From: Oceanispirochaeta sp.
GTDB taxonomy: Bacteria; Spirochaetota; Spirochaetia; DSM-2461
NCBI GenBank assembly: GCA_963663385.2
Contig: CAXXXD010000002.1
Span: 480,001-544,000, forward strand
Length of the DNA: 64,000 bases
Direction: 5' to 3'
Numbering within the stretch: the stretch's first letter is position 1; each line of letters begins with the position of its first letter. Both the position numbers and the translations under genes were made by a program. The notes below the pieces were generated by a model. That model did no database searches, was not told the DNA's origin, and worked only from the letters and a program-made list of their open reading frames with translations. Shown here one piece after another: positions 28,664 to 62,083 of the stretch.

Positions 28664-30166
28664 ATGGCTAGATATATACTGAGCGTGGATTTGGGAACGA
28701 CCAGTACGAAAACCGTTCTTTTTGATGAGAAACTGAAGGTGAAAGCTTCTGCAAAGGCAGAGTATCCTACTATATTCCCCCGCCAGGGATGGGCTGAGCA
28801 GGATGCGGAGCACTGGTGGGACGCCCTGATCTCTACTACAGCGGAAATCCTGAAGGAGAGCGCCGTTGATCCTTCGGAAATTGTCGGGGTAGGGGTGGAT
28901 TCCATGTCCAGTATGGCTCTGCCTGTGGATAAAGGGGGCAAACCCCTCAGAAACGGTCTTCTCTGGCTTGACCGGAGAGCCGAACAGGAATCCGCCTGGA
29001 TACGGGAAAACTACCGGGATTTACAGATTCGTATAAACAGTAATGATTCGGATCCTTCCAATTTTGCGCCCAAAATTCTCTGGATAAAAAATAACGAACC
29101 CGAAATCTATGAAAAAACGGATAAGTTCCTTCACTGCAACGGGTACCTGAACTACCGTCTGACCGGAAAAATGACAATGGATATTTCCGAATCGGGTATG
29201 TCCCAGCTCTGCGATATCCGGACGGGACAGTGGTCGGACGAGCTGATCCGGGCCAGCGGCATCAACCGGTCAAAACTGCCTGAAATATCTCTCTGTACAG
29301 ATATCATCGGAACGGTTACTGCCGAAGCAGCGGCTCAGACAGGCCTGAAAGAGGGAACTCCCGTTATTGCCGGAGCTATGGATAATGTCTCCGCCACTCT
29401 GGGACTGGGGCTGCGTAAAGACGGGCAGGCCTATATCTCCGCGGGAACAGCAACCAATGCGGGAGTCTGTGCTTCTTCCGTTCCCGCCGATCCCGGTATG
29501 CTCAACTATCATCACGGTGTCCCCGGACTCTACCTGGTAAACGGGGGAGTGGATTACGGGGGGGCAGGGCTTCGCTGGTTTAAAGCGCTAATCGAAGAGG
29601 AGCGTTTTGAAGTGATTGACCGTCTGGCCGGGGAATCGGGTTATCTGGATGATGTGCTTCTTTATCTGCCCTATATGATCGGACAGCGGGCTCCCCTCTG
29701 GGATCCCCATTCCAGAGCCGTCGCTTTCGGTATGAATCCGGATACCGACCGGAAAGCTATGATTCGAATGGTTATGGAAGGGATCGCTCTTGGTGTTAGG
29801 AACGTTTTCCAGATGATGGAAAACGACGGATATGCCGTTGAAGATATTGTAATGACCGGGGGGTGTGCCAACAGTCCCGTATGGACACAGATTTTTGCGG
29901 ACATCCTGGGCAAGCCTGTCATCCTTCCGGGAGAGATGGATGTAGCCCCTCTGGGAACAGCCATTATGACTGCTGTCGGCGTGGGGCTATACCCCGACTT
30001 TGATGCCGCCCTGGACGTTCTGACCGTACGGGCTTCCCATGATCCGGATAGAGAGAAGGGAGGGTATTACGATGCTCTTTTTAAGGCATTTGTCAATTTA
30101 TATAAGGCTGTCGGCCCGGTCTACAGGGAACTGGATGATATCAGGACAGAATTCCAGGGGAAGTAA
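28664..30166 (+). CDS. FGGY family carbohydrate kinase (xylulokinase-like)
   Basis: VDLGTTSTK, GWAEQD, WLDRR, LPYMIGQRAP, TGGCANS. Confidence 0.92.
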   Translation: MARYILSVDLGTTSTKTVLFDEKLKVKASAKAEYPTIFPRQGWAEQDAEHWWDALISTTAEILKESAVDPSEIVGVGVDSMSSMALPVDKGGKPLRNGLLWLDRRAEQESAWIRENYRDLQIRINSNDSDPSNFAPKILWIKNNEPEIYEKTDKFLHCNGYLNYRLTGKMTMDISESGMSQLCDIRTGQWSDELIRASGINRSKLPEISLCTDIIGTVTAEAAAQTGLKEGTPVIAGAMDNVSATLGLGLRKDGQAYISAGTATNAGVCASSVPADPGMLNYHHGVPGLYLVNGGVDYGGAGLRWFKALIEEERFEVIDRLAGESGYLDDVLLYLPYMIGQRAPLWDPHSRAVAFGMNPDTDRKAMIRMVMEGIALGVRNVFQMMENDGYAVEDIVMTGGCANSPVWTQIFADILGKPVILPGEMDVAPLGTAIMTAVGVGLYPDFDAALDVLTVRASHDPDREKGGYYDALFKAFVNLYKAVGPVYRELDDIRTEFQGK

Positions 30167-30180
30167 GTACCGGAAATCAA

Positions 30181-30193
30181 GTACTAAAGTAAC
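30181..30193. promoter_or_regulatory. GTACTAAAGTA(A)C motif, also at 36152-36163 and inverted at 36217-36229
   Basis: Repeated intergenic motif seen directly. Confidence 0.5.
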
Positions 30194-30269
30194 TTACGGT
30201 TTTTTGAATTCTTATTGAGAATTACAGATACAGGAGGAATGATAAAAAGTCTTCATAGGCTTGTGGATT

Positions 30270-30430
30270 GATACAATGTTCTAAACATCGTTTAGAACAG
30301 CCAGGTTACTGTTCGCCATTTTTACTGGTCTCCGAGACCGTACAGGAGAATGAAGAGCCGTGACCGAAACATTCAATGGTCTTCGAGACCGGATAGGAGA
30401 ATGGAATCAATTCACCGTACAGGCGCTGTT
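30270..30430 (+). ncRNA. Predicted bridge/seek RNA of the IS element (ends approximate)
   Basis: 5' hairpin TGTTCTAAAC-atc-GTTTAGAACA; two loops built on GGTCTyCGAGACC hairpins whose flanks match the target and donor junctions. Confidence 0.8.
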
Positions 30431-30451
30431 TTAGGCAATAGGAGCGAAGGT

Positions 30452-31564
30452 ATGAAGATGAGTATCGGAGTGGATCTGCACAAATCCCAGTTAACAGTCT
30501 GTTTCCTGAGTGATGATAGAAGCATTTGTGAATCAGGAATGTATCCGACCTCTGAGGACGGTTACAGAGCATTTCTTGAGAAAGCAGTGTCCTATACAGA
30601 AGAGGGCCTTGATGTTAGGGCTGCAGTGGAATCAACAGGAAATGCCCGGTTCTTCCGTAACAAGCTATTGCTAGCAGGGATTGAGGTGGTGGTTGTGAAT
30701 ACACTGAAATTCAAAGTTGTAAATGAATCAGTGAAAAAGACGGATAAGCATGATGCCAGAACTCTAGCAGAGTTCTTGGAAAAAGATATGCTTCCCGAAT
30801 CACAGCTTTGTTCTCAGGAGAGTGAGGATATCCGTAGAGTTCTTAAATCCAGAACTATCCTTGTTAAATCAGTCGTATCTTTGAAGAATCAGGTTCACGG
30901 ACTGCTTCTAGGGTATGGAATTGAAACAAAAAGAGCTGCGCTGCAGAGTAAAAAAGAAAGGCAGCGCATCCTCATCGGTCTCGTGGACCATAGGAGTTTC
31001 GGAAGCGCTGCCAAAGCGATAGAACCGCTGCTTTCTACGATAGATCAGGTTTCGAACCAGGTCAAGCAGTTAGAGATAGTCCTGCTGGAACTTGTAAAGG
31101 AAGATGAGGATGTACAGTTATTGCAGACGATCCCGGGAGTCGGATTGATAACGGCATCGACTATTAGGGCCTATACGGATGATATCAAGCGGTACGCCAG
31201 TGCCAAGAAGTATTCGGCTTATGCCGGTCTTGTACCATGGGTGCAGAACTCCAATGAGACGATTCATCATGGGCATATAACAAAGAGAGGGGCTGTAGAA
31301 CTGAGAACGGCATTTGTTCAGTGTGTTATGGGAATGGTTAGAACTCGGAAAACGACTGGCAATTACCGTATCATGACGAAGTACAGAGCGATGAAGAAGA
31401 ACAAGGGCAGCGGCACGAGTATTATCGCCTCTGCAAGAAAGATGAGTACGGTAGTGTACTCCATATTGAAAACCCGTGAACCCTTTGATCCGTTGAAGAT
31501 GGTTCCGGATGATAAGTACTTGAAGATGCAGGCGGCTGCATTCAATGCCGTAAAAACTGGGTAA
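30452..31564 (+). CDS. IS110 family DEDD transposase/recombinase
   Basis: IGVDLHK, AVESTG, KTDKHDA, TIPGVG, YAGLVP...S motifs; start set at ATG 30452 after SD AGGAG. Confidence 0.95.
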   Translation: MKMSIGVDLHKSQLTVCFLSDDRSICESGMYPTSEDGYRAFLEKAVSYTEEGLDVRAAVESTGNARFFRNKLLLAGIEVVVVNTLKFKVVNESVKKTDKHDARTLAEFLEKDMLPESQLCSQESEDIRRVLKSRTILVKSVVSLKNQVHGLLLGYGIETKRAALQSKKERQRILIGLVDHRSFGSAAKAIEPLLSTIDQVSNQVKQLEIVLLELVKEDEDVQLLQTIPGVGLITASTIRAYTDDIKRYASAKKYSAYAGLVPWVQNSNETIHHGHITKRGAVELRTAFVQCVMGMVRTRKTTGNYRIMTKYRAMKKNKGSGTSIIASARKMSTVVYSILKTREPFDPLKMVPDDKYLKMQAAAFNAVKTG

Positions 31565-31625
31565 TCCGGTTCAATTGTAAGCTTGTTAATAGGCTTATGA
31601 TTGACTTTTTATAGGAGTAAAAAAT

Positions 31626-32672
31626 ATGAAAGCAGCCGTATTATACGGAGATAACGACATCCGCTTTGAAGAGTGGGAAAAGCCCTCAGCCGGTCCCGGC
31701 GAGGTTCTTGTTAAAGTAAAAGAGTCCGGTTTGTGCGGTTCTGATATCCCCCGGACCATACACAGCGGTGCTCACTTCTATCCCATCGTTCTGGGGCATG
31801 AGTTTTCCGGTGAAATCGTAGAAGTCGGCGAAGGTGTAACCGCCAGAAGTGTGGGTGACAGAATTGCCTGTGTTCCCCTTATTCCAGACAGGAACGATCC
31901 CCAGAGCCAGAAGGGAAACTACTCCCTCAGCAAGGGTTACAAGTTTATCGGTTCCCGGGTTCAGGGGGGATGGGCGGAATATGTTTCCATGCCCTGGGAG
32001 AATGCGGTTATTCTTCCCGACAGTGTGAGCTATACGGAAGGTGCCTTTTTCGAACCTATAACAGTGGCCCTGCATGCCCTGAATATCATGAACTTCAAGG
32101 GTGGTAAGGATGTAGCCATGACCGGTATGGGAACTATCGGTCTATTAACACTTCAGTGTGTCAGAGCCATGGGCGCCCGGAAGGTTACCGTATTTGATAT
32201 TGATAATGAGAGACTGGACGTGGCCAGAAAGTACGGCGCCGATCTCTGTCTGAATACCCTGGATGCGGATTTTAAAGAGAAGGCCATGGCCTTTACAAAC
32301 GGCAACGGATATGAGGTCTGTCTGGAAACGGGAGGCGTTCCCATAACGGAAATCCTCTGTATGGAACTGGCTGCTCCCAAGGGTACGGTTATGTTTATCG
32401 GAACTCCCCACAAGCCTGTAACCCTCCAGCCCAGTGAATTTGAATACATCAACCGGAAAGAACTGATTGTGACCGGTTCGTGGATGAACTATTCCGCCCC
32501 CTTTCCCGGATGGGAGTGGGAGATGGCGGTTTACCTGTTCAGTAAAAATCTGGTTAAAACGGACAAACTGATAGACCGTAAGATCCCTCTCAGCAGGGCT
32601 TCAGAGGCAATCGCGGACCTTATGAAGCCCGGTGCGGTAAAAGGCAAGATCCTGTTCGACTGTGAAAAATAA
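31626..32672 (+). CDS. Zinc-dependent hexitol(-phosphate) dehydrogenase, galactitol-1-phosphate 5-dehydrogenase-like
   Basis: GLCGSD..R, AHFYPIVLGHEFSG, FFEPITVALH, GSWMNYSAPFPG.EW. Confidence 0.85.
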   Translation: MKAAVLYGDNDIRFEEWEKPSAGPGEVLVKVKESGLCGSDIPRTIHSGAHFYPIVLGHEFSGEIVEVGEGVTARSVGDRIACVPLIPDRNDPQSQKGNYSLSKGYKFIGSRVQGGWAEYVSMPWENAVILPDSVSYTEGAFFEPITVALHALNIMNFKGGKDVAMTGMGTIGLLTLQCVRAMGARKVTVFDIDNERLDVARKYGADLCLNTLDADFKEKAMAFTNGNGYEVCLETGGVPITEILCMELAAPKGTVMFIGTPHKPVTLQPSEFEYINRKELIVTGSWMNYSAPFPGWEWEMAVYLFSKNLVKTDKLIDRKIPLSRASEAIADLMKPGAVKGKILFDCEK

Positions 32673-61427: not shown

Positions 61428-62083
61428 TGGCTGTACCCGTATTTACGCTTTTTTACAACAAAGGCGGAGTGGGTAAAGCATCCCTTCTCTACTACCTGTC
61501 CTGGATGTATGCCGAACTGGGAAAGAAGGTTGTGGTGGCAGACCTCGATTCTCAGGCAAATCTGACAGATGCTTTCCTTGAGGAAGAAAAATAGACAAAT
61601 ATCTGGAAAGAGTCTCCCGAATCCGGGTCTCACCTCGAATTCAAACTTCCCTCAGCGGAAATGAAATCCCTGGGTTATCTGTGTCAGCAGCACAGTGTCC
61701 GATTTGACCGCCCTGTTAAAGCCTATGACCGCTGGGTAAACAGAATCCCTTCTGTTTATCGACAGGCTGTACTGAATGAAACAAATCCTCCGATTATAGA
61801 AATGGCCGATGATCCCTTCTGCCTTGCTACGATCAGGCACTACAGGAGTCTTGTCCCCATGGCTCAGGAATTCCGCAAGCCCATATTTCATCTGACCGCA
61901 GCGGACGGAGCCATTGGGAGTCATGCCAATGCTGTTAGGGACGCCGCCCGTGATTTTCGCAATCTGGCACTGAAAATTTCTTCCCTGATGGAGGAATCTG
62001 TTAAAGAGAATTTCAATCAGGTCCTGAACAAAATAAAGGAAAACTCTAATACCGAAGATCTCCCTGACTGGGATAAAATCTGA
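61427..62083 (+). pseudogene. ParA family ATPase relic: internal TAG and large in-frame deletion
   Basis: NKGGVGKA(T)S, ADLDSQANLT, TAG at 61592-61594, then the same frame continues into a C-terminal part (RKPIFHLTAADGAIGSH). Confidence 0.75.

Follow-up and report, generated by a model that had tools for sequence, protein, structure and literature searches.

Insertion sequences of the IS110 family move by RNA-guided recombination, a mechanism established in recent reports (PMC11208160; PMC11208158; PMC11187229). In the IS1111 group of the family, subterminal inverted repeats span 7–17 bp, usually 11–13 (PMC11187229; PMC11208160), the left end extends beyond them by 7 bp and the right end by 3 bp, and the RNA is usually encoded downstream of the recombinase gene; an upstream RNA, as in ISMtsp17, is a rare exception (PMC11187229). 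In IS900 of Mycobacterium avium subsp. paratuberculosis, also of the IS110 family, the target CATGNNNNNNTCTCCTT is the reverse complement of AAGGAGA-N6-CATG (PMC8141618); IS900 has no reported inverted repeats, and the available part of that report describes no guide RNA for the ribosome-binding-site target. Here we describe an IS110-family element in a 64,000-nucleotide stretch of an Oceanispirochaeta sp. genome (contig CAXXXD010000002.1, positions 480,001 to 544,000; hereafter the window, in whose coordinates all positions are given). We propose, with high confidence, that this is an active RNA-guided element of the IS110/IS1111 family, whose upstream region encodes a bridge (seek) RNA with two similar loops that targets Shine-Dalgarno sites. 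Mechanistically nothing here is new: the element is a further, unusually well-documented case of a known mechanism, and IS900 (PMC8141618), which our element resembles in this respect, was already known to home to translation start signals.

The ends of the element are similar to those of the IS1111 elements ISEc11, ISPa11, ISKpn4 and IS4321/IS5075 (Siddiquee et al., 2024, PMC11187229). Specifically, there is a subterminal inverted repeat, here of 10 bp, and, with the shared AG counted on the left, extensions of 7 bp on the left (AG+GAATG, 30235-30241) and 3 bp on the right (AGG, 31613-31615). The order of the guides, with the top-strand complement TTTTTACT ahead of the bottom-strand match TACAGGAG, and the C-terminal recombinase motif GL-P----S also follow the IS1111 pattern (PMC11187229). 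Unlike described IS1111-family elements, the RNA would lie upstream of the gene, the repeat is 10 bp instead of the more common 11–13, the motif ends in SN instead of SG or TG, and the target is a Shine-Dalgarno site (PMC11187229). Compared with the IS4321 transposase, the recombinase has 31% identity across 237 aa, in an alignment limited to residues 58–291, with GLVP....SN here versus GLVP....TG there.

With IS621 (Durrant et al., 2024, PMC11208160; Hiraizumi et al., 2024, PMC11208158) the element shares a DEDD recombinase with a serine in the Tnp domain and the placement of the RNA in a long left end that precedes the gene; the non-coding span is 215 nt upstream (30237-30451) compared with 53 nt downstream (31565-31617). 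It also shares two pseudo-symmetric loops with four guides, a 2-nt core common to donor and target, a long strict left target guide (LTG) beside a short weak right target guide (RTG), an irregular right donor guide (RDG) and a -35/-10 promoter, putative here, split across the ends. Unlike IS621, the order of the guides within each loop is reversed, the left guide being 5' in IS621 and 3' here; the gene strand carries a core of AG here, with CT opposite, and a core of CT in IS621; the subterminal repeat is 10 bp compared with 2–3 bp in the IS110 group; and the identity of the left target with the left donor extends past the core by AGG (PMC11208160; PMC11208158). The layout is mixed, with IS1111-like ends and guide order and an IS110-like RNA position. 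The preliminary description of this DNA had called the element IS1111-type, which holds for the repeat, the 7/3-bp extensions and the guide order and fails for the RNA, whose position upstream of the gene is of the IS110 type.

The other copies of the element are central to our proposal. The host genome (5.3 Mb in four contigs) contains ten full-length 1381-bp copies at ~100% identity (0–2 base differences), and these carry its sole Transposase_20 genes. That the RNA is programmed to Shine-Dalgarno sites had been proposed from the window alone; the flanks of the other copies, predicted beforehand, bear this out in ten cases out of ten, each copy lying directly after xxAGGAG and 6–8 nt before the ATG of a co-oriented open reading frame (98–689 aa). 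The left flank reads ACAGGAG at eight copies, AAAGGAG at copy L002 and GCAGGAG at copy L005. AG is present at both junctions of all ten, with no longer duplication except where the flank chances to resemble the right end. The constant co-orientation with the invaded gene would follow from the asymmetry of the guides. The transposase gene of IS900, judging from how its target motif is written, apparently runs antiparallel to the target gene.

Relatives extend this pattern beyond the host. A same-genus genome contains one copy at 75% identity and a same-family genome six copies at 71%, and a scan of one genome per species returned 43 loci, some on short contigs of uncertain binning, in Spirochaetia, Desulfobacterales, other delta-proteobacterial bins, Gracilibacteria, Treponema, Leptospira, Dysgonomonadaceae and Clostridiaceae bins. 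Both ends could be found in 51 of the 60 copies examined, the other nine being cut by contig ends or too diverged. An ATG follows the element by 3–9 nt in 48 of 50 insertions with a readable right flank, at 5 nt in 9 and at the modal 6 nt in 29. The right end TTGACTTTTTATAGGAG is present in 50 of the 51 paired-end copies; the remaining one, L043, reads ATAGACTTTTTATAGGAG, with only the last 14 bases kept. A metagenome scan with the 17-nt right end gave at least 117 loci, not all verified as ends of this element, and among the matches listed 78 of 108 distinct right flanks have ATG at 3–10 nt, with 73 open through the 60-nt flank.

If loop 1 guides insertion, then relatives with a different loop-1 3' arm should have different left flanks, and their left flanks do differ correspondingly. 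For this comparison, copies were grouped by guide into 20 lineages, with L051 and L070 (both mis-parsed) and L064 excluded. The LTG equals the consensus left flank at position -6 in 20/20 lineages, with all four bases used, and at position -7 in 15/18; when guides were shuffled among lineages, neither value was reached in 10000 trials. Agreement at position -8 (5/17) is at chance level. On these sequences the working LTG is N-N-AGGAG, of which only -6 and -7 are re-programmed while AGGAG is constant across the clade. The proposed match of the left guide to TACAGGAG is therefore to be kept for its ACAGGAG part and dropped for the T at -8, which is not a guide position.

The donor-reading loop also covaries with what it should read. 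The left end and the RDG of loop 2 occur as the pairs GAATG/CATTC, GCATG/CATGC, GCACG/CGTGC, GTATG/CATAC and GAACG/CGTTC. Among the eight lineages whose end is not GAATG, six are fully compensated, L056 has two G-T wobbles and L062 has one mismatch. Neither the left donor guide (LDG) ATAGGAG nor the right end varies in any parsed lineage, which is consistent with pairing between the two.

The 5' arm of loop 1, proposed at the outset to match the right flank, does so at 8/8 positions in the window copy and in copy L007 and only in part in the other eight copies, where 2–5 of the six bases after AG agree. This weak RTG resembles that of IS621, which is only 4 nt with the core included (PMC11208160). 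Its behavior in the host genome bears on an alternative in which the placement at ribosome-binding sites comes mostly from selection after insertion: a 7-nt guide would strike any ACAGGAG, and copies landing inside genes would be lost. Such an account could build on the weakness of the right-flank guide and on the abundance of the motif, which occurs 1462 times in the genome and has an ATG 4–10 nt behind it in 217 cases (~15% RBS-like, that is, resembling ribosome-binding sites). Occupied sites are nonetheless richer in RTG matches than unoccupied ones: agreement with TAAAAA averages 3.88/6 at the eight occupied ACAGGAG sites compared with 2.04 at 116 unoccupied RBS-like sites (p = 0.0013) and 1.59 at 1338 other ACAGGAG sites, and both perfect ACAGGAG+TAAAAA ribosome-binding sites in the genome are occupied. 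In addition, the guide itself is a Shine-Dalgarno sequence in every lineage, and the ten-out-of-ten co-orientation follows from an asymmetric guide, whereas selection against disruption would not obviously impose it. We consider it quite unlikely that selection accounts for most of the placement.

Guide-matching 8-mers are not rare singly, so the case for guidance rests on comparison, namely of copies, of guide and flank covariation, and of fold covariation. In the window, TACAGGAG occurs 3 times versus 1.29 expected (12 of 100 shuffles reach 3) and AGTAAAAA occurs 10 times versus 2.27 expected (0 of 100 shuffles reach 10). The third TACAGGAG of the window (61841-61848) has no element inserted at it; a G+C-rich stretch comes next, and the site is not a ribosome-binding site.

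The fold of the upstream region is conserved in a manner expected of RNA. The two guide modules form a 32-nt direct repeat, 84% alike; a distal hairpin of the GGTC..GACC type lies between TTTTTACT and TACAGGAG, and a second hairpin lies between CATTC and ATAGGAG. RNAalifold over 21 lineages yields 28 pairs, 10 of them compensatory, comprising the outer stem, the loop-1 proximal stem and both distal hairpins. In this consensus 96.6% of cells are paired, compared with at most 42.5% when the partners are slid, and its covariation score was reached by 0/500 shuffles; the single-sequence fold has z = -3.89. Several stem pairs are G-U in most sequences (columns 92/107 are U-G in 21/21), and because these would be A-C on the opposite strand, they point to an RNA of the plus strand. 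That the upstream repeats act instead as DNA, as protein-binding subterminal repeats, would fit the lack of an RNA run among the sequencing runs containing the stretch. We find this highly improbable, since the stems keep their pairing through compensatory changes, the G-U pairs would be lost on the other strand, and family relatives purify with such RNAs (PMC11187229).

Downstream of the conserved core, the small hairpin at 30419-30433 is a possible 3' end of the RNA, on sequence grounds. It does not covary with the target: G013 has TACAGGAG there yet targets AAAGGAG. We also considered that the conserved CAT at the 5' end of the RTG might read the start codon and rejected the idea, given that in the consensus fold this CAT pairs with TG of the 3' strand and that such a guide predicts a 5-nt spacer, yet the spacer mode is 6.

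Several observations weigh against our proposal. Over 19 lineages the RTG matches its cognate flanks at 2.6/6, compared with 2.35 ± 0.16 after shuffling (316 of 5000 shuffles), so that support for the RTG across lineages appears weak. In a 15-copy lineage of one Spirochaetia genome (L029-L042 and L049), the guide is TTTAGGAG and 10/15 left flanks read TATAGGAG. Two of the 50 readable insertions do not fit, L064 having aberrant flanks and L070 being decayed, with 13 stops, and 30 of the 108 distinct right flanks among the listed metagenome matches have no ATG at 3–10 nt. No Rfam family matches at E <= 1 across 29900-31900, and the 14 sequencing runs listed as containing the stretch include no RNA data. 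Contigs of runs X2, X6, X8 and X9 contain no joint across 30237-31617 and no end-to-end (circle) joint; they displayed only other flanks of other copies. Finally, the exact reconstructed empty allele was not found in relatives, which are other species at 75–82% identity.

The TATAGGAG flanks of the 15-copy lineage equal the element's own right end. They are not remnants of older copies, in that the likeness to the right end ceases after 8–14 nt. In that genome TATAGGAG-N4-8-ATG occurs 54 times (own right junctions included) and TTTAGGAG-N4-8-ATG 16 times; the occupancy of the two kinds of site is similar, suggesting that position -7 is tolerant there. This tolerance, together with an RTG near chance across lineages and with the invariance of AGGAG in the target guide of 20 lineages, where covariation cannot show pairing, leaves room for an account in which the recombinase protein mainly reads the constant AGGAG, the RNA tunes only -6 and -7, and the right-flank "guide" does not guide. 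We regard that account as improbable. A perfect complement of AGGAG is kept in the guide of every lineage; in L064 a guide ending in GAGAG stands at a flank ending in TAGAG, a parallel G-to-A change inside the block; and in IS621 all target positions are read by the RNA (PMC11208160).

We therefore return to the proposal of an RNA that reads both target and donor, and suggest the following course for the reaction. By analogy with the published mechanism of the family, the element would excise as a circle, whose junction would bring TTGACT (31601-31606) and TG-n-TAAAAA (30240-30248) to 17 nt from each other and so could form a promoter for RNA and recombinase. Loop 1 is expected to read the target, its U-rich 5' arm pairing loosely with the A-rich spacer after the Shine-Dalgarno sequence, while loop 2 would read the element's joined ends, ATAGGAG with the right end and CATTC with the left end GAATG. 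The RNA could in this way bridge the circle junction (ATAGG-AG-GAATG) and the Shine-Dalgarno site (NNAGG-AG-spacer), with strand exchange at the shared AG. The element would then land between the Shine-Dalgarno sequence and the start codon, and its right end would re-create AGGAG at the old spacing. The expression of the RNA, the circle with its junction promoter, the chemistry and the effect on the invaded gene are all deduced here from sequence and from the described relatives.

As the preliminary description had stated, AGGAG is rebuilt by the right end with its spacing unchanged, and this holds for every copy. The further claim that the ribosome-binding site of the invaded gene survives insertion stands as a statement about sequence only, because a hairpin and T-run resembling a terminator lie directly before the restored AGGAG and make continued expression of the invaded gene doubtful. 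This right-end hairpin has a folding energy of -19.4 kcal/mol (z = -4.06). In 12 folded lineages it ends 0–7 nt before the U-run in seven, engages the run in two and is absent in three; the stems differ in sequence among lineages, and the U-run is the same. From these comparisons it looks like a conserved terminator immediately 5' of the restored AGGAG.

The left target and left donor, ACAGGAG and ATAGGAG, are one base apart and share AGG beyond the core. This identity may reflect the duplicate origin of the two loops; it may also, and here we speculate, let a single loop read each integrated junction and thereby ease excision. It is a live possibility, if a little short of an even one, that the rebuilt AGGAG is not for the invaded gene, being either a by-product of the duplicate loops or of service to the element, to which the left junction looks donor-like and the right junction target-like. 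The 84% likeness of the two loops, the recurrence of a terminator-like hairpin and T-run directly before AGGAG in 7/12 lineages with different stems, and the single-base difference in the window between left flank and right end (TACAGGAG versus TATAGGAG) all speak for this. On the other side, the published mechanism requires only the core to be common to donor and target (PMC11208160), so the three extra shared bases need an explanation, for which sparing of the host gene is one possibility.

A more far-reaching idea is that the clade works as a reversible gene switch through mimicry of target and donor, silencing a gene while resident and returning it with an intact ribosome-binding site on excision. 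In the integrated state, loop 2 would meet a donor-like left junction and loop 1 a target-like right junction, and excision could then use the one-loop-per-DNA geometry of insertion; IS621 excision substrates, in comparison, bind across both loops and react less efficiently (PMC13626964). The co-oriented position in the 5' untranslated region would supply host transcription to the element, and the right-end terminator would silence the gene. Since AGGAG is nearly universal, the same guide would find sites in any new host, which may explain the spread of the clade over several phyla. We offer this idea tentatively and think it rather doubtful.

An empty allele had been expected in relatives, and what they present is the arrangement without the exact reconstructed sequence: the kinase and dehydrogenase genes that flank the element here are adjacent without it in 9/9 loci. 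Their spacers consist of (A)AGGAG or GGAG, then 5–6 nt and a start codon, ATG in eight and GTG in L017. A 28-nt string from the left flank matched 0 metagenome contigs. At 30167-30209, between the FGGY kinase gene and the insertion site, the inverted repeat GTAAGT ... ACTTAC precedes GGTTTTTT and may form a terminator; if so, the ~30 nt directly upstream of the element may once have contained a separate promoter for the dehydrogenase.

Re-reading of the window sequence placed all strings named in the preliminary description where it had put them, and the coordinates of the features are collected in the table. The recombinase had been called intact, and its sequence agrees with this, with both Pfam domains present. 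The N-terminal RuvC-like DEDD domain covers residues 5-155 (PF01548), and in an alignment with 14 relatives the catalytic residues D8, E60, D98, D101 and S267 are invariant, S267 lying within an invariant P-W-V-Q-N-S-N stretch of the PF02371 C-terminal Tnp domain. A search found 3578 homologues, the best 120 at 67–100% identity. The window copy alone has T at 31077, where the other nine have A, giving K209I; Lys209 is the family consensus. The collapsed contig of sequencing run X2 likewise reads A at this position.

Just inside both ends there is a direct repeat (30252-30265 and 31586-31599; TTCATAGGCTTGTG and TTAATAGGCTTATG), which in relatives changes at both ends together; it may serve as a binding site for a protein, or it may connect the outer stem of the RNA with the hairpin of the right end. 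Within the recombinase gene, 30969-30991 shows 77–78% complementarity to the hairpin region of either loop (inverted repeats I1 and I2), probably by chance. A 10-codon open reading frame from 30239 was rejected as a gene, its ATG being missing in L054, L057 and L058. Locus L070 (772-2198) might have combined this RNA with a divergent recombinase, a reading that was rejected since the locus is a decayed copy with 13 in-frame stops; its intact counterpart is L051 in the same genome, and its loop-1 3' arm has an extra GAG. Two right ends are doubled: in L054 (2117-2178) the last ~29 nt of the element (half the hairpin, the T-run and AGGAG) are repeated in tandem, and in L089, a metagenome contig, two right-end 17-mers lie 34 nt apart. 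Insertion into a right junction that was already there may have left both patterns.

Features of the element and its insertion site in window coordinates; roles assigned to RNA and promoter parts are predictions.
Feature	Position	Strand	Remarks
Left target and core, host Shine-Dalgarno TACAGGAG	30229-30236	+	guide-read ACAGG (30230-30234) and core AG (30235-30236)
Insertion sequence, IS110 family	30237-31617	+	1381 bp; equally writable as 30235-31615, AG at both junctions
Right donor half-site GAATG	30237-30241	+	first bases of the element; complement of loop-2 5' arm CATTC
Left subterminal inverted repeat ATAAAAAGTC	30242-30251	+	10 nt, 100% complementary to 31603-31612
-10-like TAAAAA	30243-30248	+	within left inverted repeat; preceded by TG (30240-30241); putative promoter role, from sequence
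Putative bridge/seek RNA, structured core	30263-30415	+	outer stem 30263-30269 with 30409-30415
5' stem-loop inside outer stem	30277-30299	+	precedes two similar guide modules
Loop 1 5' arm, RTG TTTTTACT	30319-30326	+	complements top strand AG+TAAAAA
Loop 1 distal hairpin GGTCTCCGAGACC	30327-30339	+	5 pairs, 100% of cells paired, 3 pairs compensatory
Loop 1 3' arm, LTG TACAGGAG	30341-30348	+	effective guide ACAGGAG, 30342-30348
Loop 2 5' arm, RDG CATTC	30370-30374	+	complement of left end GAATG
Loop 2 distal hairpin GGTCTTCGAGACC	30378-30390	+	4 pairs, 100% paired; 2 compensatory pairs, in 8 and 9 sequences
Loop 2 3' arm, LDG ATAGGAG	30393-30399	+	same as right end of the element
Small hairpin ACAG-GCG-CTGT, then TTTT	30419-30433	+	seen in sequence
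Recombinase gene, 370 aa	30452-31564	+	PF01548 (DEDD_Tnp_IS110) E = 1.6e-20; PF02371 (Transposase_20) E = 4.6e-19
Terminator-like hairpin (31571-31604) and T-run	31571-31612	+	15-pair stem, then CTTTTTATAG (CTTTTTAT)
-35-like TTGACT	31601-31606	+	overlaps hairpin/T-run region and right inverted repeat
Right subterminal inverted repeat GACTTTTTAT	31603-31612	+	partner of 30242-30251
Left donor half-site and core, ATAGG+AG	31611-31617	+	rebuilds AGGAG ahead of invaded gene
Right target TAAAAAAT	31618-31625	+	flank after right end reads TAAAAAATATG
Invaded gene, zinc-type alcohol dehydrogenase, 348 aa	31626-32672	+	PF00107, PF08240

A 2026 preprint models 32,190 bridge RNAs (10.64898/2026.10.21.760802). 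Our literature search found no paper tying a bridge/seek RNA or IS110 to the Shine-Dalgarno sequence; the supplementary tables of PMC11208160 and of that preprint may list the clade. The element is valuable as a clean natural example, since its bridge/seek RNA can be compared directly with many insertion sites acquired independently. The positions of ~50 copies in many genomes are accounted for by a left guide of 7 nt, five bases of which are the Shine-Dalgarno core, and this suggests how certain IS110-family elements, such as IS900, come to home to translation starts, as has long been observed. That IS1111-type ends and guide order are compatible with an upstream RNA bears on the relation of the two groups. 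For annotation, spirochaete and sulfate-reducer genes that seem to have an insertion sequence "in their promoter" will have been struck at a precise and predictable place. For engineering, the clade is a source of many natural variants that differ at two positions of the guide, and it may help to make excision more efficient.

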